From a virus (taxonomy: Duplodnaviria > Heunggongvirae > Uroviricota > Caudoviricetes), in the IMG/VR virus record IMGVR_UViG_3300032103_000073: DNA of 64,000 nucleotides, one strand, 5' to 3'. The translations under genes and the position numbers were made by a program. The notes beneath the pieces are model-generated. The model saw only the letters and a list, made by a program, of their open reading frames with translations, was not told the origin of the DNA and ran no database searches. This document shows positions 45,916-64,000 of the stretch, piece by piece. Each line of letters begins with the position of its first letter. Position 1 is the stretch's first letter.

Positions 45916-45922
45916 ATTTAAT

Positions 45923-46838: not shown

Positions 46839-47061
46839 AATAACACGGCTCCTATCATTTGCTCATTGAGGAATGCTTGGGAGTTCTTTTATAAACTTCT
46901 AATGAACGCTCTTGCAGATGCCATGCTGGTAAAAAACTTCATGTCAAACTTTAGCGTATACAAATCGAGAACAAAGATATAGCAAACATCATTAGTCTCT
47001 GTCATAGACAAGTGGATTAATAACCCGCCTTTAGTTATAGAGTCGTATGTTTGCATTAAAA

Positions 47062-47138
47062 TATTTATCATGGGTCTTTAACTCAGTTGGATAGAGTGCC
47101 AGTCTTCGAAACTGGAAGTCGTGGGTTCGAATCCTGCA
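47062..47138 (+). tRNA. tRNA-Arg (TCG)
   Basis: loop CTTCGAA. Confidence 0.7.
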
Positions 47139-47163
47139 AGACCCGCCAATTATAAATATTAAC

Positions 47164-47760: not shown

Positions 47761-47764
47761 TTAA

Positions 47765-47839
47765 CTCGCTGTAGTTCAATGGATAGAACAGTTCTCTCCT
47801 AAAGAATAGATCCAAGAATCGAACTTGGTGGCGAGACCA
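47765..47839 (+). tRNA. tRNA-Arg (CCT)
   Basis: loop CTCCTAA; unusual T-loop AATCGAA. Confidence 0.6.
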
Positions 47840-47853
47840 TAAAGGAGATCGTA

Positions 47854-48027
47854 TGAAAACACTTTACTTTGAAAATATTCGCAACCGCGAACGCTTTTAT
47901 TGTAAAAACGCTCGAGACATACATATGATCGACGGCATTGAATACATGAAAGTTTTTAGACTGGGAACGCAACGCGAAGTTCTTGTTAAACGAGAATCTC
48001 TCAAGAAAGTTGCAGAGCCCAAGTAAG
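47854..48027 (+). CDS. hypothetical small protein (57 aa)
   Basis: SD AAAGGAG plus ATG. Confidence 0.35.
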
Positions 48028-48101
48028 GCTGCTATAGTATAATGGTATTACATACCCTTGGTAAGGGTAAAACACAAGTTCAATTCTTGTTAGCAGCACC
48101 A
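48028..48101 (+). tRNA. tRNA-Thr (GGT)
   Basis: loop TTGGTAA. Confidence 0.8.
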
Positions 48102-48105
48102 TTAA

Positions 48106-48134
48106 TTGACACAAAATAGAGAACATGCTACAAT
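48106..48134 (+). promoter_or_regulatory. promoter (TTGACA-N17-TACAAT)
   Basis: drives leader A and the tRNA-like at 48347. Confidence 0.6.
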
Positions 48135-48139
48135 AGATA

Positions 48140-48346
48140 CAAGTTAAGAAATTAACTGTTTTGATAGATGTTGTTGGGAGCGATCCCCCACAACAGAGAT
48201 GTAAGGTCCTCAACTGCGAGGCGTTAGCAACATTTATCATCTTGTTCTTTAAAAATTTGCAGTGTTGTTTAGGCTGATTGACGGCAATCGAAAAGCAGTC
48301 TGAGTCTTGTCCCCGGCGCACCGCTTTGCCGAGCGTACCGCAGGGA
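48140..48346 (+). other. structured leader A (candidate small RNA), homologous to leader B
   Basis: shared 5' box AGAT(A/G)(C/T)AAGTTAAG(A/C)AATTAACT and a GGGA(A)GCGATC hairpin. Confidence 0.4.
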
Positions 48347-48420
48347 GTCTCTATAGTGTAAGGGTAGCACGCCAGCTTGTAAGAGTTGGAGGATTGGGTT
48401 CGAATCCCAATAGAGTTTAA
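48347..48420 (+). tRNA. tRNA-Gln-scaffold paralog with an 8-nt anticodon loop (TTGTAAGA); no CCA
   Basis: D-arm and T-arm nearly identical to the tRNA-Gln at 45012; stem CCAGC/GTTGG encloses 8 nt. Confidence 0.4.
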
Positions 48421-48453
48421 CAAGACATCAGCCTAAACAACATTGCAAATAAG

Positions 48454-48482
48454 TAGACACAAATTCTTGTGTTTGCTATAAT
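48454..48482 (+). promoter_or_regulatory. promoter (TAGACA-N17-TATAAT)
   Basis: drives leader B and tRNA-Glu. Confidence 0.5.
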
Positions 48483-48489
48483 AGATGTA

Positions 48490-48641
48490 AGTTAAGCAAT
48501 TAACTTACTTGCTCTTTAAAAAGTTCATCCAACATATAAGTCGCTGGGAAGCGATCATTATATGCAAACACATTAGATCAGCTACCGGCGAAGGGAGTAA
48601 CCGGCGATTGTTAAAGTGAGTGTGTTTACATATAATGTTTT
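48490..48641 (+). other. structured leader B (candidate small RNA)
   Basis: homologous to leader A. Confidence 0.4.
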
Positions 48642-48716
48642 ACTCGGTTCGTCTATCGGTTAGGACGACAGCCTTTCAAGTTGTAAAGACGGGTTCGATT
48701 CCCGTACCGAGTACCA
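48642..48716 (+). tRNA. tRNA-Glu (TTC), second copy
   Basis: loop CTTTCAA; T-arm identical to the copy at 44929. Confidence 0.7.
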
Positions 48717-49362
48717 AAAATAATCGTAGCGGTTGATGAGACTGATTAAACAAGTCAACTGAATAATCTCCCACAGATCAGTTGTAAAGGAGAACGTCTA
48801 AACACTAAGGCAATGCTTAGTACTATAGTAGATGGAAACCGACCCCTGTCAGAGCGCGGGGGCTTTTACAGTGTTTATAGTAGAGTAGGAAGTATCCGAA
48901 GCGACTTAGTTAGGATGCAGCCAACAGACCAACATTGACCGCGTAGATAGTCCGGACTATCGCTTGAAACGGAAGATGCGTCCACCCCCTGCCCTGCTTT
49001 ACTATAAACACTGTGAACGATGCGAAAGTAAGTCGGTCCAGTAGGGTAAGGAAAAGTATTGCTAGCGGAAAGAGCTGCCGAAGGACAGAAGTTAGTCCCG
49101 CATGGCAATGACTAATGCGGATAGGCTAACGCCGTGTAATCCTTCAAGAATTTGCTAACACAGGGTGGATTTACATGCCGATGTGTTTAATGTTGTTTAA
49201 AACCGAGCAGTGTGCCTTATCAGCGCAATAGTTAGACTCTACCTGGCAACAGCAAACCAAATGTAAGATAGTTGCTATCGCGTCCTGCAGGTAAGTTAGC
49301 AACCGTAACATCACGGACGGGCGTATTTTATGCCGTGTAATCAAATGCGACTCAGTAATTTA
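48717..49362 (+). other. about 640-nt ORF-free structured region (candidate ribozyme or ncRNA; group-I-intron-like P7 elements)
   Basis: AGATAGTCCGGACTA (48947-48961) and GTTAGTCCCGCATGG / GACTAATGCGGATA about 140 nt downstream; G/C-rich helices. Confidence 0.35.
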
Positions 49363-49437
49363 GCTCTGTTATTTCATGTGGTAGAATACCGGTTTTGTAG
49401 TCCGGAGAGGGCAGTTCAAGTCTGTCACGGAGCACCA
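49363..49437 (+). tRNA. tRNA with anticodon arm CCGGT-TTTGTAG-TCCGG (TGT, Thr-like; U:U closing pair)
   Basis: cloverleaf with CCA; anticodon assignment uncertain. Confidence 0.5.
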
Positions 49438-49503
49438 TATTAAAACACATTACTAAGAGTCCAGGTTCATAGCGTGGCCTAGTGTGTTTTAATATGTTTA
49501 TGT

Positions 49504-49581
49504 CCGGGTGTAGCGCAGTCTGGTTAGCGCATCTGCTTTGGGAGCAGAGGGTCGTGAGTTCGAATCCCACCACCCGGACCA
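49504..49581 (+). tRNA. tRNA-Pro (TGG)
   Basis: loop TTTGGGA. Confidence 0.75.
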
Positions 49582-49590
49582 AGTTTATGT

Positions 49591-49668
49591 TGGGGTATAG
49601 CTTAGTTTGGCCTAAAGCAACGGTCTTTGAAATCGTGATCACTGGTTCGAATCCAGTTACCTCTGCCA
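49591..49668 (+). tRNA. tRNA-Gln (TTG), second copy
   Basis: loop CTTTGAA; U1:U72. Confidence 0.6.
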
Positions 49669-49724
49669 AGTTTTAGGAGAATCGCGTAAGCGTATTCTTA
49701 ATCGACCCAGTATCAGGGCGTCCT

Positions 49725-49752
49725 GACATTAGTATTTTTTGGGGGCAGCAGC
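49725..49752 (+). terminator. hairpin plus T-run (weak terminator)
   Basis: tcagggcgtcctga ... tttttt. Confidence 0.35.
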
Positions 49753-49827
49753 GGGCTGCGGTGATCCCTTGCAAGGATCATGACTAGAAGGGTTCAACTC
49801 CCTCGGCCTCCACCAAACAATGCCCGG
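49753..49827 (+). tRNA. tRNA-Ala (TGC)-like
   Basis: G3:U70; loop CTTGCAA; atypical D region and 8-nt variable loop; T-loop TTCAACT. Confidence 0.5.
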
Positions 49828-49833
49828 TTAATT

Positions 49834-49907
49834 AAATGGTATAATACACCCCTGATAAGGGTGAATCACTGGATCGTAACCAGTACTGGGTACCAATGTT
49901 AGTTAGA
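49834..49907 (+). tRNA. tRNA-Ile (GAT)
   Basis: loop CTGATAA. Confidence 0.7.
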
Positions 49908-49948
49908 GCATTCTGTTGATCTATGATAAATAATATTATGGAGACAAT

Positions 49949-50542
49949 ATGTTTTGTAAATTTTGCAACAAAGAATGTAAGAATAAGAATAGTCTAGTAA
50001 ACCATGAGCGTTTATGTCCAGCGAACCCTGACAGAAAATATGTGTCACACACGCTAGGTAAAAACGGTCATGTCGCTTGGAATAAAGGACTGTCCAAAGA
50101 AACTTCTAGATCTTTGGCACAGTTAAGTGAAACACATAAGCGAAACGGTCACGGTGGCTGGTCTAAGAAAGCTAGTTCCAACGGAGGCAAAGCAGGTGGC
50201 GGATATCGTGAAAATGCAGGAAGAAGTAAGAAATTCAAAGTAGTCGATTCTTTCGACAAAACGGTGTGCTTGCAAAGCACATACGAACTTAGATGCAGTC
50301 GACTATTGAATGAGTTGGGCATTAAGTGGATAAGACCATCAGCATTAAAGTATGATAGTAAAAATTATTTTGCTGATTTTTATTTACCGGAGTATGATTT
50401 GTATCTAGATCCAAAGAATAATTATAAAGCAAAATTGGATACTGACAAAATCAATAAAGTAAAAGAACAAAATAATGTAAGAGTTGTGATTCTCACTGAG
50501 GATCAGTTGACTCAAGATTATATAAAAAGCCTTTGTAGTTAA
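49949..50542 (+). CDS. zinc-finger protein, possible homing-endonuclease-like
   Basis: N-terminal CKFC...HERLC zinc finger; basic middle region; inserted between tRNAs. Confidence 0.35.
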   Translation: MFCKFCNKECKNKNSLVNHERLCPANPDRKYVSHTLGKNGHVAWNKGLSKETSRSLAQLSETHKRNGHGGWSKKASSNGGKAGGGYRENAGRSKKFKVVDSFDKTVCLQSTYELRCSRLLNELGIKWIRPSALKYDSKNYFADFYLPEYDLYLDPKNNYKAKLDTDKINKVKEQNNVRVVILTEDQLTQDYIKSLCS

Positions 50543-50602
50543 ATGGTATAACGGTCGCTTGATAAGCGATTATTACAAGTTCAATTCTTGTCGAAGGCAC
50601 CA
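50529..50602 (+). tRNA. tRNA-Ile (GAT)-like, second copy
   Basis: loop TTGATAA; overlaps the preceding ORF's 3' end. Confidence 0.55.
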
Positions 50603-50841
50603 AGTTTTGTAGCGTTAGCAAGAGAAAAGTACCAATTCGTGTAGCTGGCCAGCGAAAGAGGAGGTAAAACAGGAGGGGGTTCAACTCCCCACCGCGGGTA
50701 GCCATGCGGTAGCTGGAATGGAGCATCTGACCAAGTATCCCAAGTAACAAGTCCTGGAAGAACTCGACGTAAGGAAGTCCGGCTCTGTACGTCTAAACAC
50801 TAGTGATAAACCTGAGGACGCTAGGCTACAAATTAATTTAT
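50603..50841 (+). other. ORF-free structured region with a tmRNA-type T-arm motif (GGGGGTTCAACTCCCC)
   Basis: motif at 50667-50682; no CCA end. Confidence 0.3.
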
Positions 50842-50917
50842 TCCCCAGTAGCACAGCGGTAGTTGCGCCTGACTGTTAATCAGGATGTCCGTGGTTCGAT
50901 CCCACGCTGGGGAGCCA
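50842..50917 (+). tRNA. tRNA-Asn (GTT)
   Basis: loop CTGTTAA. Confidence 0.75.
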
Positions 50918-50971
50918 ATTAATAAACACATTGCCGAGCGACGAAGGAAATGAGTAGTGTGTTTTTTAATT

Positions 50972-51061
50972 GGAGAGTGTTCCCGTCAGCGGCCTGTAAA
51001 GTCGTTGTCCTTAATTTGGCGGGTGGCTGGACAGATGGTTCGATTCCTTCACTCTTCACCA
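50972..51061 (+). tRNA. tRNA-Tyr (GTA)-like, atypical (reduced D-arm, about 28-nt variable arm)
   Basis: acceptor GGAGAGT/ACTCTTC; anticodon arm GCGGC-CTGTAAA-GTCGT as in E. coli tRNA-Tyr. Confidence 0.45.
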
Positions 51062-51066
51062 ATTTT

Positions 51067-51141
51067 GGCCTTGTCATATAGTGGTTATTATACCGGTCTG
51101 TCTAATCGGATATCGGGGTTCGATTCCCCGCAAGGTCGCCA
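51067..51141 (+). tRNA. tRNA-Asp (GTC)
   Basis: loop CTGTCTA (U37). Confidence 0.6.
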
Positions 51142-51148
51142 GTTTAAT

Positions 51149-51225
51149 GCGTCTGTAGCTCAGTTGGATAGAGTACTTGGCTACGAACCAAGGGGTCGTG
51201 GGTTCGAATCCTGCCAGACGCGCCA
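51149..51225 (+). tRNA. tRNA-Arg (ACG)
   Basis: loop CTACGAA. Confidence 0.8.
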
Positions 51226-51230
51226 AATAT

Positions 51231-51307
51231 GCCAATGTAGCTCAGACGGTAGTAGCAGCGGATTGAAAATCCGCGTGTCGGTGGTTCGATTCCACTCGTT
51301 GGCACCA
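51231..51307 (+). tRNA. tRNA-Phe (GAA)
   Basis: loop TTGAAAA. Confidence 0.8.
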
Positions 51308-51453
51308 GTTAAGGGATAGACGGTACGATGAGTCCCACACAACCTAGCATTGGGTCTAGCAATGCGAAACGGCAGATCGGTTGAAGTGGTTGTATAAACT
51401 CTTGTATGCGAGACAATCCGGTAAGGTCTGCGGGAACAGACGAGCTGGGCTCC
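51308..51453 (+). other. ORF-free structured spacer (candidate ncRNA)
   Basis: no ORF; G/C-rich hairpins. Confidence 0.3.
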
Positions 51454-51530
51454 CAATCTATATGCCTTGGTGACGGAATTGGTATACGTGCTTGACTCAA
51501 AATCAAGATTCTGTGGGTTCGAGTCCCACC
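51454..51530 (+). tRNA. class-I (short variable arm) tRNA with Leu anticodon CAA
   Basis: arm CTTGA-CTCAAAA-TCAAG; 4-nt variable loop. Confidence 0.55.
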
Positions 51531-51531
51531 C

Positions 51532-51560
51532 AAGGTACCAGTTGACACAAAATAGCAGAT
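51532..51560 (+). promoter_or_regulatory. promoter (TTGACA-N17-TATAAT) plus SD and 7-codon mini-ORF (MKRSGKR)
   Basis: AACAGGAG then ATG 51585 and stop 51606. Confidence 0.55.
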
Positions 51561-51681
51561 GCTATATAATTTAATTTTAAACAGGAGTATGATATGAAAC
51601 GTTCAGGTAAACGATAGTGTCATCCTAGACCCCGTAATTGGTCTGGGTTGGCACGTAAAAGAAAATGTAATTTACGACTAA

Positions 51682-51755
51682 CCCTTCGAGATGTTATGGT
51701 TGCATAGCGGACTCTTAATCCGACAAGTGACGGTTCAAATCCGTCCGGAGGGACC
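51682..51755 (+). tRNA. tRNA-Lys (CTT)
   Basis: loop CTCTTAA; 4-bp anticodon stem. Confidence 0.6.
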
Positions 51756-51761
51756 AATTAT

Positions 51762-51835
51762 GGGATTGAAGCTTTAAGGTGAAGCAACGGACTTTTAATC
51801 CGTAGATCTGGGATCGTTGGCCCAGCAGTCCTACC
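51762..51835 (+). tRNA. tRNA-Lys (TTT)
   Basis: loop CTTTTAA; atypical T-loop. Confidence 0.65.
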
Positions 51836-51956
51836 ATATAAAAACACATTATTAGTTCAGTAGAGAACGATAACAGGCCATCTTTTGGTAGATCAGTATG
51901 TTATAGGACAACAGATGAAATTTCTGTTATAGTGTGTTTCTATATGGTATTTTTAT
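51836..51956 (+). other. spacer with hairpin and T-runs (terminator-like)
   Basis: aacagatgaaatttctgtt hairpin. Confidence 0.3.
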
Positions 51957-52032
51957 GCAGCGTTTAGTGGAGTGGTTACCATACTTGTCTGTGAAACAAG
52001 TGAGAACGGTTCGAATCCGTAACGTCTGCCCA
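51957..52032 (+). tRNA. tRNA-His (GTG) with G-1 and a bulged U in the acceptor 3' strand
   Basis: loop CTGTGAA; G-1:C73. Confidence 0.55.
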
Positions 52033-52227
52033 AACAATATTTTTTGTTAAGCTGTAGTTTAAATGAAAGCCTGAGTGTTTCCCGACGGGGATTAGCAAGG
52101 GACGCGGTAAGTTAGTAGACAAAAACGACAATGGGCCCTGCGTTGTTGGCGGCTACTGATGATGACAATAGAATAACGTCCGCGGAGGACGAGGTGCTCA
52201 GAGTTGAGCCAGCTTTACAAAGAATAT
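52033..52227 (+). other. ORF-free structured region (candidate ncRNA)
   Basis: 195 nt, no ORF. Confidence 0.3.
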
Positions 52228-52303
52228 GGTGATGTAGCTCAGTTGGTAGAGTACCTCCTTCATACGGAGAGTGTCGGCGGTTCAAGTCCGTCCATCACCA
52301 CCA
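52228..52303 (+). tRNA. tRNA-Met (CAT), elongator-like
   Basis: loop TTCATAC. Confidence 0.7.
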
Positions 52304-52310
52304 AATATAA

Positions 52311-52437
52311 TCTGTAGGTGCTGAAACGGTAGACAGCAGACGGCAGTCTGTGTAAAGGGTTCGAATCCCTTGGAAGTCCGCAAGACTTTTAGTATGGTAC
52401 TATTGGTGGTTCGAGTCCATCCCTGCAGACCAAATAA
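52311..52437 (+). ncRNA. about 125-nt tRNA-like element (acceptor CTGTAGG/CCTGCAG, CCA, two T-arm-like hairpins)
   Basis: 7-bp terminal pairing, D-arm-like helix, internal AAGGGTTCGAATCCCTT and GGTGGTTCGAGTCCATC. Confidence 0.4.
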
Positions 52438-52448
52438 ATAAATAGTCA

Positions 52449-53051
52449 ATGGAACAAAAATTTTTATTTGCAGAAAAGTCAAAATGTTTTAGACACATCA
52501 CTATGCCGTTTACCTTTATTCAACCGCATGTTCCTATCGATCTGACTAGCATTACTTCTCCTAAGGAAATACACATTAATATCAATTCAGTAGACGCCTG
52601 TTTTATAACATGGTTGCATAATCTAGGTTTGTATTCACTCCATCCTAGGTTATTTGTTACTCCGCCTGGGACAAAATACAATATCCATGTTGATATTTTG
52701 TTCCCGCGAGAAAATACTGCTACTTATTTAAATTTTCCGTTTAATGACGCTGGTTCATTTATGAGGTGGTTTAATTTAAAAAACGAAAAAAATGCTTATA
52801 TAACAACTACTAGTGTAGAAGACAAAAAATTTCAAGTTATTAATGCAAACGAAGATGATTGCTCTGTTATCGAAATTATGCACGCGCCCGGCAATTCTCC
52901 TATATTAGTTAATGCCGGTTACTTACATGATTTAACGAATCCGAGTAATTTCAGACATTGTTGGAGTTTCCCTTTGCTAAAATTAATCGACAACACACGA
53001 ATAAATTGGGACGAAGCAGTGGAGATTTTTTCCTCTTACATTAAAAATTAA
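52449..53051 (+). CDS. Fe(II)/2OG dioxygenase-like paralog
   Basis: IHVDIL...LNFPFNDAG...NAGYLHDL. Confidence 0.45.
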   Translation: MEQKFLFAEKSKCFRHITMPFTFIQPHVPIDLTSITSPKEIHININSVDACFITWLHNLGLYSLHPRLFVTPPGTKYNIHVDILFPRENTATYLNFPFNDAGSFMRWFNLKNEKNAYITTTSVEDKKFQVINANEDDCSVIEIMHAPGNSPILVNAGYLHDLTNPSNFRHCWSFPLLKLIDNTRINWDEAVEIFSSYIKN

Positions 53052-53574
53052 CAGGTAAGTCAAATATTCGAATCAGTAGCATCACTCGCATATTTGGAGA
53101 TTTGTTTTCTACTCTATGCGGAACTTTAACCGATAGCAAATAAGGCACAGAAGTTTCGTGAGATTCTATTAACTTACAATCATCCGGGTAGTACCTGAAA
53201 AAATGATGAGTTTTTCCTTTATTTTCTACTGTTACTACGTGCGGGTTTGCTAGCGTGTTATAAAAATTTATCCAAGTATTTTCGCACCCAGAAATGGGAA
53301 TGTTTAAACTATATCGGTAAGGACCGCTGTCCATATGATAATTTCCGTTGTCATATCCCATTGTTACATTTATTGCAACCTGGCCTACGCAATGGTTGGG
53401 TAATTTTAGATCATTAATTACTTTTTTGATAGACGGAAGTGTTAAAAAAACATCTTTGTTATTTTCTATATAAGTTAAATTAGTAGAAAGCAAAAGGTGT
53501 TTGGGTATAGACATCAATACTTCGTTTTGTATGTCTGTGAGATTTTCTATATGTATTTCTCTAAAAGGAGCCAT
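53041..53574 (-). CDS. Fe(II)/2OG dioxygenase-like paralog
   Basis: YHMDSGPYRYSLNIPISGCENTWINF...VPHRVEN; paralog of 18783. Confidence 0.45.
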   Translation of the reverse strand: MAPFREIHIENLTDIQNEVLMSIPKHLLLSTNLTYIENNKDVFLTLPSIKKVINDLKLPNHCVGQVAINVTMGYDNGNYHMDSGPYRYSLNIPISGCENTWINFYNTLANPHVVTVENKGKTHHFFRYYPDDCKLIESHETSVPYLLSVKVPHRVENKSPNMRVMLLIRIFDLPVNF

Positions 53575-54195
53575 ACTAGTATTTATAAAATATCTCGCAG
53601 ATCAAGTTTATGTGGCGTGTATAGGTCATACACGATTTCTGGCAGTTGAAGTGACAGGAGTAATTATCCTGAGAACGATACTGGTGCTGGGAGGTAACGT
53701 TGCCCGGCGAGAAATCCGAGATTGTTTGCGTTCGAGTCGCAAACGCTACACACAAAGTTTCTTGCAAGAAGAACAGAGGTACGGTGGTCCTACTTGAGTG
53801 GGGACTATAAAAGCCGACAAACGCCTGGGGTACAACTCCATACGCTCAGCCAAATAAGGCGGATTCTGTTTCTCCGTAACAGCCCTAGCAGGCACCTGAA
53901 AAGGACTTGGGACAGCGTATTGCTACATCGACGACGAAATGTCGAGCTGGAGAATGTAACCAGCATCCATAGTCAATAACATTCATCATTGGTAGATAGC
54001 CTTAAGCGGTTGGCAAACCGGGACTACACTACGAAGCAGCTTAGCCAGCGCGATGAAAAGACCCTTTACGTCGAGAGTGTTATTGACTATGGTCCACAAG
54101 GGTGGTATGTAGGCAACGTGGATTTGCCGAGGACCGGGATTCCTTAACTAGCCAACAACTAGTGCCATATAGTATATTGGTATTACATTTATAAT
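53575..54195 (+). other. about 620-nt ORF-free structured region (candidate ncRNA or ribozyme)
   Basis: no ORF of 100 aa or more; AGGTAACGTTGCCCGG; AACCGGGACTAC / CATAGTC elements. Confidence 0.35.
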
Positions 54196-54270
54196 GTCCG
54201 GTTATTTCAGCGGTAGAATACTTCCATGACACGGAAGAGGTCACTGGTTCGATCCCAGTACCGGACACCA
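54196..54270 (+). tRNA. tRNA-Val (GAC)
   Basis: loop ATGACAC. Confidence 0.7.
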
Positions 54271-54271
54271 A

Positions 54272-54300
54272 TTGACACAAAATCACAGAACAACTATAAT
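54272..54300 (+). promoter_or_regulatory. promoter (TTGACA-N17-TATAAT)
   Basis: upstream of the tRNA at 54304. Confidence 0.6.
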
Positions 54301-54303
54301 AAC

Positions 54304-54380
54304 AACTAATAATGCCCCGGTGGTGGAATTGGTAGACACGCTACGTTGAGGTCGTAGCATTTGCAGGTTCGAGTCCTGTC
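54304..54380 (+). tRNA. class-I tRNA with Leu anticodon GAG (G37)
   Basis: 5' half resembles E. coli tRNA-Leu (TGGTGGAATTGGTAGACAC) but the variable loop is only 4-5 nt. Confidence 0.55.
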
Positions 54381-54432
54381 CAGGGTACCATTGAATGTAA
54401 AGTTAAATACATATGTAAACAAAGGAGTAATC

Positions 54433-55280: not shown

Positions 55281-55952
55281 ATGAAACGTATCATCGAAAT
55301 CAGAGCCGCCGAGGGCGGAGAAGATAGTAAACTATTTGTTAAAGATTTGGCACAAGCATATATTAAGTTCGCACAAAGCAAGGGCTGAGCTACCCGCCTG
55401 ATAGGTGAGTATCAAGGCGAACTTCATATTGAAGTCCAGGGTACTGATTTATCCGGCTTGTATAACGAAAGCGGAGGACATCGCATACAGCGAATTCCGC
55501 CCACAGAACGAAAAGGCCGAGTGCATACCAGCACAGTCACAGTTGCCATCGTAGATCCCGCAGAAGTTGCTTTAGAATTAAAGGACTCTGATTTACGAAT
55601 AGAATGGTACAGTGGTACAGGCGCCGGCGGGCAGCACAGGAACAAGCACCAAAACTCGTGCCGCATTACACACATTCCTTCTGGCATAGTTGCAACAGCA
55701 CAATGTCGCTCAAGGGAAAACAGTTTAGCGGAAGCACGAAGCGCGATTGTTGCCCGTGTAAACGAACAAGTTAAAAAACAGTTTACAGATGGGCTAGCAC
55801 AAAATAGGCGTGAGCAAGTGGGCTCTGGCATGCGAGGAGACAAAATTCGCACTTACAGATTCCAAGACGACAGGGTGCAGGACCATGTAACAAGCAAAAC
55901 AGCCAGTACTAAAAAAGTATTACAAGGCAACTTTGACTTGCTGTGGGCTTAA
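55281..55952 (+). CDS. RF1-like peptide chain release factor (domains 2-4) interrupted by an in-frame TGA at 55386-55388
   Basis: strong SD; GGQ motif SGTGAGGQHRNK; PxT-type tripeptide (PPT); ESGGHRIQRIP; a single reading frame across the TGA. Confidence 0.65.
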
Positions 55953-55953
55953 A

Positions 55954-55982
55954 TTGGCACAAATTGGCTTTGGTGCTATAAT
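55954..55982 (+). promoter_or_regulatory. conserved early promoter plus UTR cassette
   Basis: before ATG 56015. Confidence 0.75.
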
Positions 55983-56014
55983 ACATACATAGCAAAACAA
56001 AACAGGAGTTAGAG

Positions 56015-56245
56015 ATGGACCGCACACTGTACCGCATTTATGCTCGCAATGAGGATTCTGATCGTGTTGTTATGTACGAAACAGATATGAACGGTATGTA
56101 TATGGACCGCTTTTACGACTTCGGTGCTATGAGCGTGTTTGATGTTAAGCGAGTCCTTAACACCTACGATGGCATCGACCCCAAAATTGAAAGTGTTTCT
56201 AAAACTGAATTCACTAAAAAGTTCGGTAAAGCATTCGCACTGTAA
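56015..56245 (+). CDS. hypothetical protein
   Basis: ORF. Confidence 0.5.
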   Translation: MDRTLYRIYARNEDSDRVVMYETDMNGMYMDRFYDFGAMSVFDVKRVLNTYDGIDPKIESVSKTEFTKKFGKAFAL

Positions 56246-56633: not shown

Positions 56634-56885
56634 ATGAAAGACATTGTTAAGCAAGAACTGGCGGTTGGGAATATGGTTGTTTTTAACCCGCCAAAATACA
56701 AAGGCTTGGTCACAGGCACGGTTGTCGGCTTCACTCCCAAAATGATTAAAGTGAAATACTCAGCCGCTTGGGTTAGCAATTGGGTCGATGGTCAACGAGT
56801 CAATTGGGATATTACTAATGTTTACCCTACAGATGTTATGAAAGTTGACGAACAATTGGCATTTATTCATACATTGAGTGTTTAA
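56634..56885 (+). CDS. hypothetical small protein (KOW/SH3-like paralog group)
   Basis: paralog of 9928. Confidence 0.45.
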   Translation: MKDIVKQELAVGNMVVFNPPKYKGLVTGTVVGFTPKMIKVKYSAAWVSNWVDGQRVNWDITNVYPTDVMKVDEQLAFIHTLSV

Positions 56886-56914
56886 TTGGCACAAATTGGT
56901 TTTGGTGCTATAAT
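56886..56914 (+). promoter_or_regulatory. conserved early promoter
   Basis: before ATG 56946. Confidence 0.7.
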
Positions 56915-56945
56915 ACTTGTATAGTAAGAAGCAAAGGATAACACA

Positions 56946-58593: not shown

Positions 58594-58806
58594 ATGACTA
58601 GATTCTTCTGGCAAGATGCCAAAGGTCTCAAAGCCGATGTTGAACGTCATCGTGCTAAAGAGGCTGAACTGGATGCTCGTATCGCAGAACTCGAAGGCAA
58701 AGATGATCCTATGAGCATCGCAGCCATGCGAGTGTATCGCAGATTTCGTGCGCAACTGCAACAAAGCAAGGCTGATGTTGTAAGCAAGATTGGAAAAAGA
58801 AAATGA
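58594..58806 (+). CDS. hypothetical protein
   Basis: ORF. Confidence 0.45.
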   Translation: MTRFFWQDAKGLKADVERHRAKEAELDARIAELEGKDDPMSIAAMRVYRRFRAQLQQSKADVVSKIGKRK

Positions 58807-59345
58807 AAAAATGGATCACCTCGGATTTACATTTCGGGCATGCCAATATTATGAAGTTCTGCCCGGTGACCCGTGTGGGATTCACCGATGTGACAGACAT
58901 GCGAGAACAGATGATCGCAGAATGGAATGCAAGTGTTGCACCAGAAGATGAAACATTTATCTTGGGCGACTTTGCATTTTTGCCTGCGAAAGATGCGGTT
59001 GCTATTCTGCGTAGACTAAATGGCACAAAGATTTTGATTGAAGGCAATCACGACCGCAAACTGTTGAACGACCCGAGCTTCCGCGGGGAGTTTAAAGAAG
59101 TACATCAGTACTTGCGTTATAATCATGAAGGTACTACTGTGATTATGTTGCACTACCCTATCTGGGAGTGGGATCAAATGCATCGCGGTAGTGTGCATTT
59201 TTATGGGCATGTGCATGGCGCAAAGACTGGCATGGAAAAGTATCGTGCCCGTGATGTAGCGTTTGACGCTACGGGACGAGTCGTTAGTAACTTGGATGCT
59301 ATGATTGCAGATGCATTAAAGGGCGAAATTCGCAGTCATCACTAA
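58803..59345 (+). CDS. metallophosphoesterase (Ser/Thr phosphatase-like)
   Basis: SDLHFGH, GDFAF, GNHDRK and GHVHG motifs. Confidence 0.65.
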   Translation: MKKWITSDLHFGHANIMKFCPVTRVGFTDVTDMREQMIAEWNASVAPEDETFILGDFAFLPAKDAVAILRRLNGTKILIEGNHDRKLLNDPSFRGEFKEVHQYLRYNHEGTTVIMLHYPIWEWDQMHRGSVHFYGHVHGAKTGMEKYRARDVAFDATGRVVSNLDAMIADALKGEIRSHH

Positions 59346-59362
59346 ACAATTTCGGAGCATAC

Positions 59363-59770
59363 ATGGTGCTTTCTAAAAACAGCTTAAACAAACTAAAGTC
59401 CAGTATGATGTCATCGGATTCGAGTGCAGATTATGCTGGACCTGTTTATAACTATTTGGTCTACGGTTTCCATCCGGGTAGCTTTTTTCGAGCACTGTTA
59501 GCTAACGATTTTATGAGTGCAATTGCTCACAGTCATCCTGCTAACAGCGTATATGAGCTTAAAAAGCTAGTAGGATGGCTATGTCAAACTTTCCCACCCG
59601 ATGTTGTTTATGGTAATTATGAAGTAGTAGAAGGTTGGTGCAAGAAAACTGACGAAGAACGGTATCAAGTATTACTAGATGCTAAACTTGTATACGATAA
59701 AGAAACTGAAATGATGCTAATCCTACAGGGAAAACTGCAAGCAGATGTACGGGAAATCGAATTTGTTTAA
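59363..59770 (+). CDS. hypothetical protein
   Basis: ORF. Confidence 0.45.
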   Translation: MVLSKNSLNKLKSSMMSSDSSADYAGPVYNYLVYGFHPGSFFRALLANDFMSAIAHSHPANSVYELKKLVGWLCQTFPPDVVYGNYEVVEGWCKKTDEERYQVLLDAKLVYDKETEMMLILQGKLQADVREIEFV

Positions 59771-59829: not shown

Positions 59830-60366
59830 ATGGAAGATTTTACCATGGATCAAAGCGGTATGGATATCGTGCGTAAGGCACAAGTCTATGCCATGGCTGC
59901 TCATGCGGCTGTTGGACAAAAGCGTAAGTACACCAACGAACCCTACATTGTTCACCCTGCAGAAGTTGCCAGCATCGTTGCCAGTGTTCCCGGTAGTACT
60001 CCTGACATGGTTGCGGCCGCGTGGCTTCATGACGTTATCGAGGATACTGGTTGCACATTTACTGATGTGCATATGGCTTTTGGTATCGACATTGCTACTC
60101 TCGTTGGCTGGTTGACTGATGTGAGCCGGCCCGAAGATGGCAATCGTGCCCACCGCAAGGCTATGGACCGTGAGCATACTGCACAAGCACCTGCTGAGGC
60201 ACAGACCATCAAGTTGGCTGACCTTATCAGCAACAGCCGTAGCATCATGCAACATGACCCGGAGTTTGCAAAGACTTACCTCGAAGAAAAGCGTCAGCTT
60301 CTTGCAGTTATGACCAAGGGTGACCGCAGTCTTCATGCAGAAGCTAGCAAGTTTGTTGGAGTTTGA
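59830..60366 (+). CDS. HD-domain phosphohydrolase
   Basis: H..H...HPAEV and WLHDVIEDT (H-HD-D metal ligands). Confidence 0.6.
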   Translation: MEDFTMDQSGMDIVRKAQVYAMAAHAAVGQKRKYTNEPYIVHPAEVASIVASVPGSTPDMVAAAWLHDVIEDTGCTFTDVHMAFGIDIATLVGWLTDVSRPEDGNRAHRKAMDREHTAQAPAEAQTIKLADLISNSRSIMQHDPEFAKTYLEEKRQLLAVMTKGDRSLHAEASKFVGV

Positions 60367-60367
60367 A

Positions 60368-60634
60368 ATGAACGAACAAATGCTGGAACTTTATAGACGG
60401 GCTCAAGTGCCGTATACTGCTATTGACCCGTCTAATAATATGCCTTATGAGACAACTACTTTTAGTGCGGAAAAGTTCGCCGAGTTGATTGTTCGGGAAT
60501 GTTTGAACCAATTACAAGAATTAACGCCACTGAAAATTTCCAATGAAGAACACCAGAAATTAGTTGATGCTACACATATAGCGGCAGTGAGTATCGGTGT
60601 TGCTAAGATTAAACATCATTTCGGAGTTGAATAA
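60368..60634 (+). CDS. FAELIVREC-family small protein
   Basis: KFAELIVRECLNQ...HHFGVE. Confidence 0.55.
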   Translation: MNEQMLELYRRAQVPYTAIDPSNNMPYETTTFSAEKFAELIVRECLNQLQELTPLKISNEEHQKLVDATHIAAVSIGVAKIKHHFGVE

Positions 60635-61179
60635 TGAAGTTAGTTTTAATTCGAGGATTGCCCGGTTCGGGTAAAAGCACAATGGCACAAACTTTGTGCT
60701 ATAGCCCAGACTGGGTACATCAAGAAGCAGATCAGTTTTGGATGCATAACGGAGAGTACCGTTTTGATGCCGCTCGGTTGCGCGAAGCTCACGAATGGTG
60801 TCAATCTAAGACTCGCGAAGCATTGGCCGCAGGCTGTGATGTTGTGGTCTCTAACACCTTTACTACCATCAAAGAACTGCGTCCTTACTTTGACATTGCA
60901 AAAGAATTTAACATTGTGCCCAATGTATTTGTAGCACAAAACGACTTTGGTAGTGTTCACAATGTTCCTGCTGAGACTTTGGCTAAGATGCGTGAGCGTT
61001 TTCAGTTCAATATTGACAGCCTGTTTGCAGAGTACCGGCCTGCAAAGGTTATCCCTATTGCTGTAGACGGGGAAGATGGATGGCACACTTGTCCCTACAA
61101 GATGGAAATCCACGACGACTTCGAGTCGCTGTGTCAATGTTCAGATGAACAAGAGCACGAATGTGCTATGGATGTTTAA
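60634..61179 (+). CDS. P-loop polynucleotide-kinase-like protein
   Basis: Walker A GLPGSGKST; PNK/zeta-toxin-type kinase fold size. Confidence 0.55.
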   Translation: MKLVLIRGLPGSGKSTMAQTLCYSPDWVHQEADQFWMHNGEYRFDAARLREAHEWCQSKTREALAAGCDVVVSNTFTTIKELRPYFDIAKEFNIVPNVFVAQNDFGSVHNVPAETLAKMRERFQFNIDSLFAEYRPAKVIPIAVDGEDGWHTCPYKMEIHDDFESLCQCSDEQEHECAMDV

Positions 61180-61180: not shown

Positions 61181-61429
61181 ATGGGCTGGGTAGTTTATGC
61201 TAAAGGCGATGGAGAAATTCTTCGCTATTACAAGTCGGAGAAGGCAGCACAGAGCCAAGTCACAGGACACAATAAAAAACTGTTTCTGGACATCCTGCAT
61301 AACGGCCATAGTCGTTATGAAAGTCGCAAGGAGTGGGCATACTGCAACTGGCACGACTTTGAAGAAGTTTATAAAAAGTATTATGAACATAACAAGCACC
61401 ATATGCTGGTTATGAGCTCATTTCGCTAG
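61181..61429 (+). CDS. hypothetical protein
   Basis: probable ATG 61181 (track from 61076). Confidence 0.4.
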   Translation: MGWVVYAKGDGEILRYYKSEKAAQSQVTGHNKKLFLDILHNGHSRYESRKEWAYCNWHDFEEVYKKYYEHNKHHMLVMSSFR

Positions 61430-61468: not shown

Positions 61469-61496
61469 ACTTTTTTGCATAAAATAGAGTTATATA

Positions 61497-62396
61497 ATGT
61501 TTAAAGACGAATTGAAAAAGTATGTAGAGACTTCGGGCTTAGTGAACATGAAGCCCGCTGGGGACGGAATCTTTGTTCTCAAGTATCGCAAAAAAGTTTT
61601 TTATGACAATCTTTGGGACGAGTATCTGGAACACTGCCGCGGGTCAGTGATTGATAAAGACTTTAATCTAATCTCTTATCCGTTTCAGAAAATCTACAAC
61701 TATGGTATCGAAAAGGAAGCACCTGTGCTAGCGGACGACACTGAAGTTTTAGCATATCGCAAAGTCAATGGCTTTATGGTAGCCATGACTTGGTACAATG
61801 GCGACATCTTAGTTTCAACTACAGGTTCTACAGACAGTCCTTATGTTACTATGGCAAAAGAAATGATGTTGACTCATCAATCTTGGGCAGACTGGCAGTT
61901 GGCACTTAACCGTTCAGACATGGATGGCATGACCGTTATGTTTGAGTGTGTTCATCATAACGACCCGCACATCATTCCAGAAAAGCCAGGTATGTATGTA
62001 TTAGGCTATCGTAACAACCAGTTTGGTTCTAAAGTGGGGCACGATCCTTGCGTATTGCAAGACTTGGCGATTGCATTTAACTGCCACAAGCCAGAAAGCG
62101 TAACAGCGTCCATGACGGCAATAAAGAACTTGGCCAAGGAATGCAAGCACGAAGGGTTTGTATTCTATACCGCTGATGGTGTAAGTGCTAAGATCAAGTC
62201 GCCATACTACTTGACTTCAAAGTGGGTTGCTCGCAATCCACGTACAGATAAGTTAGTAGACTTGAACAAGGACATCAAGCACAATATCGACGAGGAGTAT
62301 TATGGGCTCATCGACGCAATCCGATTAAACATCGCGGCTTACACCGCGATGAATGAACAGGAAAGATTAGAGTGGGTTCGTAAGTTCCTCGGATAA
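61497..62396 (+). CDS. ATP-dependent RNA ligase-like nucleotidyltransferase
   Basis: motif I KVNGF; EGFVFY (motif IV); K-x-K (motif V). Confidence 0.6.
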   Translation: MFKDELKKYVETSGLVNMKPAGDGIFVLKYRKKVFYDNLWDEYLEHCRGSVIDKDFNLISYPFQKIYNYGIEKEAPVLADDTEVLAYRKVNGFMVAMTWYNGDILVSTTGSTDSPYVTMAKEMMLTHQSWADWQLALNRSDMDGMTVMFECVHHNDPHIIPEKPGMYVLGYRNNQFGSKVGHDPCVLQDLAIAFNCHKPESVTASMTAIKNLAKECKHEGFVFYTADGVSAKIKSPYYLTSKWVARNPRTDKLVDLNKDIKHNIDEEYYGLIDAIRLNIAAYTAMNEQERLEWVRKFLG

Positions 62397-63083
62397 CTTA
62401 CAGTTATCACCGTGCCATCGTTTAAGATTGCTCGCACTTACTTCTTTAGAACAGTGAGGGCATCTTAACCTTGGACGGTTTGCGTGATAGGGATTTTCTT
62501 TAATCTTGTTGATATGTTCTGTTGATTTGGGCTTGCTCTGCTTTGCCTTTATTTCTGCCGCATACTCAACACCAAATCGTTCCTCGTAAGTTTTTCCAGC
62601 ATAGTGTTCTCGCATAGTTTGCTTGAACTCATCTGTTTTGGGCTGCGAATGTTTGCCCTTGCCGTTGGCACTCATTTTCTTTCTTGTGCTCTCTTTGTGA
62701 GTTTTGCTATACATAGGATTAAGTTCGCCTCTACGAGATTTACCATACCAAGGATTTTTCTTTCCGCGAATGTCTGCGTGAAAAGTCCCAGCACCGGTTG
62801 CTTGGTTTATGTATAACGGATTCTTGTGTACCTGGTGCTTTTTATGAAAGTATTCTTCTTGTTCTGCCGCTTCTTTTTTAGTAGCATGAACAGTAAGTAT
62901 TTTGGTTTCGAAAAGGTGTGGATTTTGTTCAAGTTCCTCTAACCAAATCTGTTTGTAAAGTTTGCTGGAAACGGAACCGTGATATCCGTTTTGAACATTT
63001 TTTACATTGGAACGCCCAATGTAAAACATAGGCATTTTGGTCCCTTTGTAAATGGTTAGATAGGTACAGTATTCCATTGACAT
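62367..63083 (-). CDS. GIY-YIG homing endonuclease (Seg-like)
   Basis: YLTIYKGTKMPMFYIGRS GIY-YIG; basic C-terminal region; only large minus-strand gene in this block. Confidence 0.7.
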   Translation of the reverse strand: MSMEYCTYLTIYKGTKMPMFYIGRSNVKNVQNGYHGSVSSKLYKQIWLEELEQNPHLFETKILTVHATKKEAAEQEEYFHKKHQVHKNPLYINQATGAGTFHADIRGKKNPWYGKSRRGELNPMYSKTHKESTRKKMSANGKGKHSQPKTDEFKQTMREHYAGKTYEERFGVEYAAEIKAKQSKPKSTEHINKIKENPYHANRPRLRCPHCSKEVSASNLKRWHGDNCKLSEELTNPL

Positions 63084-63138
63084 TTTTCCTTTTCGGTGCT
63101 ATACTTATTTATATGAATACTATCCTTTTGTTGATAAA

Positions 63139-63351
63139 ATGAATAAACTAATCAAAGAACTTAAACACCAAGCAACAGACTATGTTGATAGTATTGATGA
63201 TGGGCTTGGTATAGAACATTATAGAGAATTTGTGGATCTAAAGTTCGCTGAGTTGATTGTAGGGGAATGTGCTAAAGTTGCTTTGTGGGAGCAAGGCAAG
63301 GGATATGATGTTGGTGAAATTATCCTAAAACATTTTGGAGTAAAAGAATGA
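63139..63351 (+). CDS. FAELIVREC-family small protein
   Basis: KFAELIVGECAKV...KHFGVKE. Confidence 0.55.
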   Translation: MNKLIKELKHQATDYVDSIDDGLGIEHYREFVDLKFAELIVGECAKVALWEQGKGYDVGEIILKHFGVKE

Positions 63352-63449
63352 CGCTAGTAGATGCTATTCGTGCTAACATTGTAGAATACACTGCCATGGA
63401 CGAGCAAGCTCGTCTTGCATGGGTACGCAACTATATGGAGGCGGCCTAA
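63348..63449 (+). CDS. duplicated C-terminal fragment of the RNA ligase (33 aa)
   Basis: MTLVDAIRANIVEYTAMDEQARLAWVRNYM versus ligase C-terminus LIDAIRLNIAAYTAMNEQERLEWVRKFL. Confidence 0.5.
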   Translation: MTLVDAIRANIVEYTAMDEQARLAWVRNYMEAA

Positions 63450-63672
63450 GGATGAAATGTTTAATGGAACATGGGGTACAACCTATGTTCCAAGAAAGCG
63501 AACAGTAAGTCCTTGGGTTAAATGGTTTGCTTGGCGGCCTGTTACAACAGTAGGAGGCCATCGTATGTGGCTTAAATCTGTATATCGACGATGCATAAAC
63601 ACTTATGTTGATATGGACAACTGGCGCAGGTATGAATATGCTACTTTATTTGATGTGCTGAAAGGTAACTGA
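63415..63672 (+). CDS. hypothetical protein
   Basis: ORF. Confidence 0.45.
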   Translation: MHGYATIWRRPKDEMFNGTWGTTYVPRKRTVSPWVKWFAWRPVTTVGGHRMWLKSVYRRCINTYVDMDNWRRYEYATLFDVLKGN

Positions 63673-64000
63673 TGAGACTAATGTTAGGTACTAAAGAACG
63701 ACCAAGTTTGTTAGTTGACGTTGAGCAGGAATACAGTCCTACTCACTTTGAGTTTTGGGTAGTCAACGGGGCATGGGAAGGTACTTACACTAACGGGCAT
63801 GTCACTGTTTGGCATCCCTGTGAGCCGTGGTCTGAACTAGGCAAAACTGAAATCTTGTGCGATAATCAAGACAGGTTGCGTAGTTTGCCTAGTTATGATT
63901 ATCAGACCGTGTTTGACAACTTTCACGATCCTGATTATGTTGCACCCAAGCCCGAGAAGGTTGTACTGCCTGCTGACTGGGACGATGATATACCATTTTA
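63672..64000 (+). CDS. hypothetical protein (3' partial at the window edge)
   Basis: ATGA-coupled ORF running off the end. Confidence 0.4.
   Translation, partial: MRLMLGTKERPSLLVDVEQEYSPTHFEFWVVNGAWEGTYTNGHVTVWHPCEPWSELGKTEILCDNQDRLRSLPSYDYQTVFDNFHDPDYVAPKPEKVVLPADWDDDIPF

Follow-up and report, generated by a model that had tools for sequence, protein, structure and literature searches.

A Seg-like endonuclease gene that very probably moves with a substitute C-terminal module for the phage RNA ligase it invades

Why should the end of an RNA ligase gene be present twice in a phage genome, once in place and once more beyond an endonuclease gene? The question is raised by a 64,000-nucleotide (nt) stretch of DNA from a virus of the Caudoviricetes (IMG/VR record IMGVR_UViG_3300032103_000073), referred to below, at its full length, as the window. 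Near its right end, a gene for an RNA ligase related to T4 Rnl1 is followed by a minus-strand gene for a putative homing endonuclease, a small gene of a family marked by the motif FAELIV, and a 33-codon open reading frame (ORF) that resembles the C-terminal tail of the ligase. An earlier, sequence-only reading had placed these four ORFs correctly and had taken the arrangement for the outcome of an insertion that duplicated the ligase tail. The comparisons described here point to a different history. Very probably, a Seg-like endonuclease moves together with a substitute C-terminal module for the ligase, and the native tail has been displaced downstream, where it is seen as the 33-codon ORF.

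The repetition itself is borne out. When window ORFs of at least 60 amino acids (aa) were compared with the window by tblastn, the sole non-self match of the ligase was the 33-codon ORF (E 3.4e-7), and ligase residues 271–298 are identical to ORF residues 3–30 at 18 of 28 positions (BLASTP E 7e-12). The DNA alignment that had been suggested as a check gives 49 identical positions out of 87 (56%) when codons are aligned, distributed over first, second and third codon positions as 23/29, 22/29 and 4/29, and the longest run common to both copies is 6 nt. The two tails are nearly the same protein and differ at almost every synonymous position. Such a pattern, with third sites matching in only 4 of 29 codons, indicates old divergence under protein-level constraint and not chance or convergence; judged by their codons, the copies are homologous, constrained as proteins and saturated at synonymous sites. 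Low DNA identity had been proposed as a sign of convergence, but it is not a valid discriminator here, because the copies are different alleles of one gene segment. A chance or convergent resemblance, for which nothing speaks but the shortness of the match, has a negligible probability in view of the BLASTP value and of the colinearity of the ORF with endonuclease-free ligase tails, which extends into the downstream gene.

The insertion was delimited by comparison with 80 IMG/VR ligase loci (L numbers), most of which lack the endonuclease. Endonuclease-free L011 aligns to window positions 61496–62303 and 63354–63772, and these segments are contiguous in L011, meeting at its positions 6807 and 6811; the intervening 62304–63353 is therefore a 1050-nt insertion, beyond which lies the original end of the ligase gene. 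In endonuclease-free relatives, ligase codon 269 leads straight into the sequence that corresponds to the 33-codon ORF of the window, and the context downstream of that ORF also matches theirs. A homologue of the 71-aa gene that comes next in the window starts approximately 10–70 nt past the end of the ligase match in L008, L011, L017, L024, L029, L030, L037, L038, L040, L068, L077 and L080, and the ribosome-binding-site (RBS) context of this gene, TAAGGATGAAATG, is common to the window, L024, L008 and L029. Endonuclease-free genomes therefore exist for the comparison that the sequence-only reading had recommended, and they confirm an endonuclease-containing insertion between homologous tail copies.

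A closer pair with and without the endonuclease is formed by L064, which carries it, and L037, which does not. The two are 98.9% identical over ligase nt 1–729 and 97.3% identical downstream, and between these segments 924 nt in L064, made up of the endonuclease gene and a new ligase end of 53 codons, take the place of 144 nt of L037; of the native codons, the final 10 persist in L064 as a remnant. Homology within the pair breaks at ligase nt 729 (codon 243), which falls within the block corresponding to window positions 62172–62261. Among cultured phages, no near-identical match to the DNA of the window was found, and the best cultured relative of the ligase, that of Acidovorax phage ACP17 (45% identical), has the site without an endonuclease.

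Which of the two tails is the foreign one could be decided from their affinities. Of 2479 ligase relatives in the protein database, the best 120 were compared in detail; they are 74–84% identical to the window ligase, 297–308 aa long and aligned at 99–100% query coverage, and two main tail classes can be told apart among them, a common A type (PLVDAIRANIVEYTAMDEQARLAWVR...) and a minority B type (GLIDAIRLNIEAYTAMNEQERLEWVRK(F/Y)LE), the latter being carried by the window ligase. Third-position identity of the window ligase to endonuclease-free A-type relatives is 0.47–0.55 in the body and 0.14–0.39 in the tail, and to the B-type loci L028, L162, L163 and L055 it is 0.47–0.57 in the body and 0.82–0.96 in the tail. 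This incongruence between tail and body indicates that the attached tail travels with the endonuclease. On these comparisons, the attached tail is a foreign module that came with the endonuclease, and the downstream ORF is the displaced native tail, here called the remnant.

The remnant has the affinities that a native tail would have. The intact ligases P0037 and P0064 share its tail peptide without a single difference, and the remnant agrees with the intact tails of L077 and L003–L006 at 28/28 aa and 75–76 of 84 nt; against intact A-type tails, the remnant matches at 64–77 of 84 nt and up to 28/28 aa, and the attached tail at 43–56 of 84 nt. Two cases link a remnant to its own host lineage. 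One is the L064/L037 pair, and the other is L166, the remnant of which contains the rare change A277E that is also found in the tail of P0014, its closest endonuclease-free ligase (92% body identity); no endonuclease appears on the gene map of the P0014 contig, the level at which that contig was compared.

These affinities bear directly on the supposition that the resident tail was duplicated in place by the insertion event, as in a target-site duplication, and that the copies then diverged. Such an event would leave homologous copies flanking the insert, as is observed, yet it is highly improbable: third positions between the copies are saturated, but the upstream copy is 82–96% identical at third positions to tails that stand beside very different ligase bodies, and the downstream copy is identical in protein sequence to intact tails of other genomes. 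Divergence in place cannot yield near-identity to the tails of genomes whose ligase bodies are far more divergent. Of the earlier claim, the insertion between homologous copies stands, and the duplication does not, as the attached tail is foreign and the downstream ORF native. A third tail type, LLSAIQ(A/E)(D/N)IE(A/S)YTAKTEQERL..., is present in endonuclease-free ligases of a more distant clade (L059–L063, L070 and L072) and is also the attached tail beside the endonucleases of L050 and L081; replacement tails may stem from lineages in which this type is the native tail.

The ligase that has received the foreign tail is complete. Its ORF crosses the junction at codon 270 in frame and stops at 62394–62396, and its length of 299 aa is the norm of the family; as all 120 homologues have 297–308 aa and near-full coverage, a full-length tail is likewise the family norm. 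Every family-invariant residue of this region is held by the attached tail (L271, I275, R276, I279, Y282, T283, E287, Q288, R290, L291, W293 and R295). The protein matches PHROG 562, ‘RNA ligase and tail fiber attachment catalyst’ (E 4e-50), and, under the curated cut-off, TIGR02308 (E 3e-9); PF09511 is recorded for many of its homologues, and the window ligase itself has no Pfam match at E<0.1. The KxxG lysine motif, K89-V-N-G92, is invariant across 40 homologues, and the protein has the nucleotidyltransferase fold, the AlphaFold model (predicted local distance difference test score, pLDDT, 79.8) having T4 Rnl1 (2c5u) as its top Foldseek match (E 1.2e-10, template-modelling (TM) score 0.64). 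In this model, helices comprising residues 266–277, 279–284 and 287–298 follow a low-confidence linker (residues 243–258), and the segment that is swapped and repeated is, as modelled, a discrete C-terminal helical module.

Completeness of the upstream ORF also decides against a ligase in pieces. In the manner of nrdA and mobE of Aeromonas phage Aeh1, the ligase could have been split, so that it depends on the downstream peptide and carries a non-functional filler as its attached tail, and the locus does resemble such genes in that an endonuclease gene lies inside what was formerly a single gene and the displaced piece has translation signals of its own. That explanation is very unlikely, given that no invariant residue is missing from the attached tail of the upstream ORF, which is a complete ligase, and that a remnant is lacking in L162 and L027, where endonuclease and replacement tail are both present. 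There is equally no basis for the suggestion that the ligase might be expressed in two versions: 62396 is the last position of its ORF, and the second tail copy forms an ORF of its own approximately 950 nt downstream, beyond a gene on the opposite strand.

The minus-strand ORF is treated here as a Seg-like GIY-YIG endonuclease, although assignment of its catalytic domain is not formally above threshold. Residues 115–138 match Pfam NUMOD3 (PF07460) with 24.7 bits, above the cut-off of 20.4, and the protein matches PHROG 314 homing endonuclease (E 4e-23) and TIGR01453, the group I intron endonuclease model of the I-TevI family (E 4.5e-5, 23.6 bits). Its N-terminus contains YLTIY...(9 aa)...FYIGRS, it is 32–37% identical to annotated homing endonucleases of T4-like phages, and a search of the PDB gave no sequence match.

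Its distribution is that of a mobile gene. Copies that are 83–90% identical occupy the same site in L162, L163, L166, L081 and L028, beside ligases that are 55% (L081), 73% (L028) and 78–82% (L162, L163 and L166) identical to that of the window; on these identities, one endonuclease lineage has spread across clearly divergent ligases. A second endonuclease clade, approximately 40% identical, is found at the same site in L050 and L027. The nine distinct endonuclease-bearing loci (the window, L027, L028, L050, L064, L081, L162, L163 and L166) all have non-A tails, and in all nine the endonuclease gene is convergent with the ligase gene and overlaps its end. With about 70 loci lacking the gene, this is a presence/absence polymorphism at a single site in the 3′ end of the ligase gene. 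Endonuclease-free loci have A-type tails in 50 cases and other tails in 19 (Fisher p 4.5e-4, a conservative value in which 7 of the 9 were scored as endonuclease-bearing). The ratio of non-synonymous to synonymous differences (pN/pS) in the endonuclease gene, 0.08–0.19 against close copies and 0.33 against the more distant copy of L064, places it under purifying selection by this measure.

The flanking ligase sequence has been co-converted with the endonuclease gene, as is seen from the shared B-type tail. Between the window and L081, whose ligases are 55% identical, DNA identity rises from approximately 55% to 85–90% at about 62350 and falls again at about 63135. High identity to L162, L163, L166 and L081 stops sharply at 63135–63139 (at 63139 for the first three); the left boundary of the shared segment varies, lying at about 62262–62306 against B-type loci and at about 62350 against L081. 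Immediately upstream, the block 62172–62261 is 0.84–1.00 identical to endonuclease-free L001, L002, L011 and L008; 3′ of it, endonuclease-free alleles drop to 0.5–0.65, whereas endonuclease-bearing B-type alleles hold 0.84–0.93. Being conserved and adjoining the left boundary of the shared segment, the block is a natural place for a homologous crossover. It was also considered as a target site conserved beyond the needs of its protein, and was rejected as such, its codon conservation of 0.72–0.76 lying inside the range of the gene (0.55–0.76).

Remnant starts cluster at codons 267–272 (in the window, L050, L163, L166 and L081); the exception is L064, whose remnant starts at codon 292. A relic of ligase sequence marks the right edge of the cassette, and in the carrier allele synonymous differences are dense over EEYY(P/G)L(V/I)D. 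Taken with the clustering, these features suggest that cleavage or insertion takes place in this region, and we infer site-specific cleavage of endonuclease-free ligase alleles near codons 266–272 (EEYYPLVD).

A homing cycle can be proposed on this basis. The endonuclease would cut endonuclease-free ligase alleles near codons 266–272, and repair would copy the cassette from a co-infecting donor, with the left crossover in the conserved block at approximately codons 226–255 and the right crossover no earlier than the point at which the native tail begins. The substitute module (about codons 271–299) would keep the invaded ligase full length, and its recoding would both make the carrier resistant to self-cleavage and prevent recombination between the copies. 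The native tail and the gene that follows would be pushed downstream, with the inserted DNA supplying the new start codon of the tail, and the remnant would stay open and translated mainly for the ribosome-binding context of the next gene, which lies in and just past its 3′ end.

At the right edge of the cassette, the region upstream of the endonuclease gene contains AAGGA before the ATG and TATAAATA at 63106–63113 on the minus strand. The latter is tentatively read as a promoter; as a general promoter of the phage it was rejected, with just 7 copies in the 64 kilobases (kb) of the window. The relic shares the exact 11-mer GAATACTATCC with the endonuclease-free ligase sequence GAAGAATACTATCCACTAGTAGAT. 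Copies of it, some differing by one or a few substitutions, are kept in L162, L163, L166 and L081; in L064 it has degenerated, and the second endonuclease clade (L050 and L027) lacks it. We read it as the leftover of an earlier remnant; by analogy, it is possibly an operator resembling the target site, such as has been reported for I-TevI (PMC2988022).

Between the cassette and the remnant lies the FAELIV gene, a cargo gene that is one of five paralogues in the window (the others at 5619–5849, 5846–6037, 33357–33581 and 60320–60634), of a family with no match in Pfam or PHROG. Family members are 60–105 aa long, contain the motif FAELIV(R/G)EC and end in HFGV(K)E, with GGAG in the last codons and a stop codon that overlaps the next ATG; about eight copies, mostly in tandem, are present in L072 (1240–5483). 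The same slot is empty in L081, holds another FAELIV gene in L050 and L172, and in L163 spans about 1.4 kb with five genes. The ORF that precedes the common ATGAC junction is of FAELIV type in the window, L170, L173 and L172, and is an unrelated 64-aa ORF in L168, L169 and L174. Orthology of the remnant-adjacent FAELIV genes was rejected, those of the window, L050 and L163 being mutually no closer than to other paralogues, so the shared junction cannot be dated from the cargo genes.

Why does the displaced tail stay open? Remnants of the native tail were found in the window, L050, L081, L163, L166, L168–L174, L219, L242 and L243, and one cut to 10 tail codons in L064; in endonuclease-bearing L162 and L027 the remnant is missing, and there the 71-aa gene is absent too. 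Gene calls with exactly the 33-aa peptide of the window are present on 8 contigs. Among seven copies set against that of the window, five differ by 6–11 of 102 nt, always synonymously, and those of L170 and L171 are identical to it; the L050 remnant has 12 differences, 1 of them non-synonymous. Such perfect conservation of the remnant protein implies either that the insertions are recent or that the ORF is under selection. A metagenome scan with the junction pattern ATGACNYTNGTNGAYGCNATHCG returned 76 matches, of which 4 are true remnants (L182, L219, L242 and L243); the others have no ligase-tail continuation and were set aside as probably due to chance, their number being roughly that expected for the information content of the pattern.

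The remnants vary as intact tails do. Those of the MT class in L219, L242 and L243 end in NFLEPV, RQLA and EQLA, and these endings, like NYMEAA and the Q at position 13 in L243, match variants of intact tails. The ending co-varies with the start signals of the next gene, as in intact ligases: NYMEAA-TAAGGA is the RBS context of the 71-aa gene, and EQLA-TGA overlaps the next ATG. Five junction types were distinguished (MT-L, MK-V, M-L, MF-EYYPL and MASKTA-WVR), each with an in-frame ATG 0–5 codons before the first tail codon and several with GGAG upstream. Between the window and L173, synonymous differences (pS) are 0.23 and non-synonymous differences (pN) 0.056 in the cargo gene, against 0.27 and 0 in the remnant, but synonymous divergence is unable to separate a selected mini-gene from a recent capture, as any two A-type tails differ similarly.

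We favour, at somewhat better than even probability, a remnant that is a recently captured native tail, kept with a start codon because the next gene has its translation signals inside it and beyond its end. Selection on the remnant peptide itself ranks below this as a tentative possibility. The 33-codon ORF could then be a maintained gene, providing either a free C-terminal helical module in trans or a leader ORF for the next gene, a role compatible with its origin by insertion. The synonymous-only differences in five of the seven copies and the absence of non-synonymous change relative to the adjacent cargo gene would be expected of such a gene, as would the MT start and ATGA overlap that persist behind three unrelated upstream ORFs, the in-frame ATG at all five junction types, in some cases with a GGAG Shine–Dalgarno sequence, and its recognition as a gene by metagenome gene callers. 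A maintained gene is nonetheless doubtful: variants of the remnant mirror those of intact tails along its whole length, which fits recent capture from its own host; L162 and L027 lack it, and L064 retains just 10 tail codons of it; no separate remnant accompanies the B-like tails of endonuclease-free L055, L164, L253 and L255; and the ligase already has a complete tail with every invariant residue.

Recombination between the two copies had also been suggested. Ordinary homologous recombination is unlikely with a longest shared run of 6 nt, but tails that match the predicted product do occur, in four endonuclease-free genomes (L253, L255, L055 and L164). They are of B type up to TGGGT of Trp293-Val294 or just beyond, and of A type from there on. 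L253, L255 and L055 match the B-type tail of the window at 68–70 of 71 nt, the B-like part of L164 is more diverged, and the end of L253 is identical to the last approximately 38 nt of the window remnant. Chimeras of this kind are expected from rare microhomology recombination at the best-matching stretch, TGGGTNCGNAA, with loss of the endonuclease, or from a conversion tract that did not reach as far as the endonuclease gene. On either route, the endonuclease is lacking and most of the presumably resistant tail is present.

A broader interpretation, which we consider unlikely but worth setting out, is that the displaced tail is translated and maintained and that the cassette is a self-contained device for replacing gene ends, built of three working parts. 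The first would be the recoded tail, which would give a working ligase, resistance to the endonuclease and freedom from deletion by recombination; the second would be the endonuclease, and the third the start codon that keeps the old tail translated. Translation of the remnant would then couple the downstream gene to upstream ribosomes or yield a free ligase C-terminal module in trans, and the endonuclease-free chimeric tails, B-type to Trp293 and native thereafter, would be resistant survivors of endonuclease loss.

Several observations weigh against a cassette of endonuclease and substitute module that displaced the native tail. No endonuclease-free genome with more than about 84% ligase identity to the window was found, so the boundaries in the window rest on more distant relatives. 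The remnants are conserved at the protein level, and a neutral relic would be expected to decay. The Pfam GIY-YIG model has no match to the endonuclease at E<0.1, and the match to TIGR01453 is under its 56-bit cut-off. The target site is a prediction drawn from junction positions, the EYYP relic and allele differences. Finally, the cargo differs between genomes although the ATGAC junction is common to them, which a single simple insertion does not explain. With these points taken into account, joint movement of a Seg-like endonuclease and a substitute ligase end is still the reading that we prefer.

The features of the locus are collected in Table 1. The endonuclease ORF and the 3′ end of the ligase gene overlap by 30 nt, so that the last 10 endonuclease codons lie on the antisense of the final ligase codons, and the codon for ligase Leu291 (TTA, 62367–62369) reads as the endonuclease stop on the other strand. 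The start of the 33-codon ORF overlaps the stop of the cargo ORF as ATGA, with GGAG 7 nt before the ATG, and the RBS of the next gene sits within the final codons of the 33-codon ORF.

Table 1 Features of the RNA ligase locus (window coordinates)
Feature	Position	Strand	Remarks
Rnl1-type RNA ligase	61497–62396	+	299 aa, full length; resident body and imported C-terminal helical module
Most conserved ligase DNA block (codons 226–255)	62172–62261	+	Likely left-crossover zone in homing
Insertion relative to endonuclease-free genomes	62304–63353		1050 nt; contains the replacement tail, the endonuclease gene, the cargo ORF and the start codon gained by the remnant
Replacement ‘B-type’ ligase tail, LIDAIRLNIAAYTAMNEQERLEWVRKFLG	62307–62396	+	Codons 271–299 and stop
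Free-standing Seg-like GIY-YIG/NUMOD3 homing endonuclease gene (putative)	62367–63083	–	238 aa; convergent with ligase
Upstream region of endonuclease gene	63084–63138	–	Right end of conserved cassette
Relic of ligase codons 267–273, GAATACTATCCTTTTGTTGAT = EYYPFVD	63115–63135	+	21 nt; right end of cassette
Cargo gene, FAELIV-family small ORF	63139–63351	+	70 aa
Displaced native ‘A-type’ tail, MT + LVDAIRANIVEYTAMDEQARLAWVRNYMEAA	63348–63449	+	33-codon ORF
71-aa gene	63457–63672	+	Native right-flank marker; directly after the ligase stop in endonuclease-free relatives

Upstream of the ligase gene, a phosphoesterase-like ORF (58803–59346, with a weak match to TIGR04123), an HD_4 phosphohydrolase gene (59830–60366) and an AAA_33 P-loop kinase gene (60634–61179) make up a group that looks like an RNA-repair set. 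Gene order and content of this cluster differ among related contigs, and two further ORFs within it, 61181–61429 (82 aa) and 59363–59770 (135 aa), have no Pfam or PHROG family match. Other convergent endonuclease genes were seen in the corresponding cluster of two relatives. In L166, an HNH/NUMOD3 endonuclease gene (1502–2158, minus strand) is convergent with the phosphoesterase gene and overlaps it by 20 nt, and in L255 a gene of HNH/NUMOD3 type (670–1446, minus strand) overlaps the HD_4 gene by 49 nt, the C-terminus of the HD protein differing from that of the window after ...AVMTK. No displaced-tail remnant was found beside either of these two endonuclease genes.

Elsewhere, the window contains 32 predicted transfer RNA (tRNA) genes, all on the plus strand and arranged in several clusters (37652–54390); one of these genes (48346–48419) has a predicted four-base anticodon (gtaa) with no amino acid assigned. 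The tRNA array also holds the paralogous ORFs 47164–47760 and 52449–53051, which are 32% identical and belong to no Pfam family, and the minus-strand ORF 53041–53574 is a paralogue of 18783–19301. A sequence of about 60–70 nt, corresponding to a translated motif of 20–25 aa on the minus strand, recurs about ten times with 65–92% translated identity (5265–5341, 6216–6282, 8490–8597, 19283–19368, 20144–20212, 21444–21515, 23083–23145, 23467–23544, 55950–56015 and 56885–56923); it could represent a regulatory or mobile repeat, or else the conserved first part of the members of a gene family.

Is a gene-end replacement of this kind known elsewhere? Hybrids of genes with mobile ORFs (mORFs) have been described from fungal mitochondria, first for atp6 of Allomyces macrogynus and later for atp6, atp9, cox2 and nad3 of Glomus sp. 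(PMC3630166), and also for atp6 and cob of Endoconidiophora (PMC3630166, PMC6279837). They consist of an inserted foreign C-terminus, an endonuclease ORF and the native C-terminus downstream, the last with synonymous-only differences from relatives (PMC3630166, PMC6279837), and the inserted and native copies have similar proteins at approximately 60–70% DNA identity (about 64%) (PMC3630166). The ligase locus is like these hybrids in that a mobile endonuclease gene is inserted in the 3′ part of a conserved gene together with a foreign, in-frame substitute C-terminus, the phylogenetic affinity of which differs from that of the gene body, and in that the native C-terminus lies downstream and is closer to the C-termini of relatives than the inserted one is. 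It is unlike them in its host, a large uncultured phage for which metagenomes are the sole source, and in its target, an RNA ligase. Moreover, the endonuclease gene here runs opposite to the host gene and overlaps its stop region, whereas in fungi it is on the same strand, downstream and often in phase; the displaced tail has a start codon and RBS of its own and is coupled to neighbouring ORFs; and the space that separates the endonuclease gene from the remnant collects additional cargo genes.

The locus also resembles the intronless homing of the T4 Seg (GIY-YIG) and Mob (HNH) endonucleases, in which free-standing endonuclease genes lie between or overlap conserved genes, with presence/absence polymorphism among related phages and co-conversion of flanks (PMC2988022). 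The T4 endonuclease genes differ in that they are inserted between genes or split a gene (mobE/nrdA and mobA/gene 39-60), and duplication or replacement of the end of a target gene is not mentioned in that review of T4 mobile elements (PMC2988022). Nor was a description of gene-end replacement by an endonuclease in phages found in the literature, a weak negative in that subscription journals were mostly outside the search. The T4 mobA gene and the gene 60 bypass element reportedly form a mobile cassette (Bonocora et al., 2011). There, too, the invaded gene reportedly stays functional thanks to a companion sequence, which also changes the target site and presumably makes the carrier immune, but the companion is a translational bypass in a split topoisomerase gene and not, as here, a recoded copy of the C-terminal module of the gene itself.

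The identification of the ligase locus as a phage counterpart of a mechanism known from organelles is well supported. It means that, by bringing along a spare gene end, a homing endonuclease of a phage can invade the coding sequence of a conserved enzyme with neither an intron nor an intein and with no split of the gene. The related genomes provide a natural series through the life cycle of such a selfish gene, from endonuclease-free alleles, through invaded alleles with full, truncated and lost remnants, to endonuclease-free chimeras. For annotation, the mechanism explains a class of orphan mini-ORFs beside endonuclease genes. For the ligase family, it means that the 3′ ends of genes may differ in history from their bodies, which would mislead phylogenies of this ligase.

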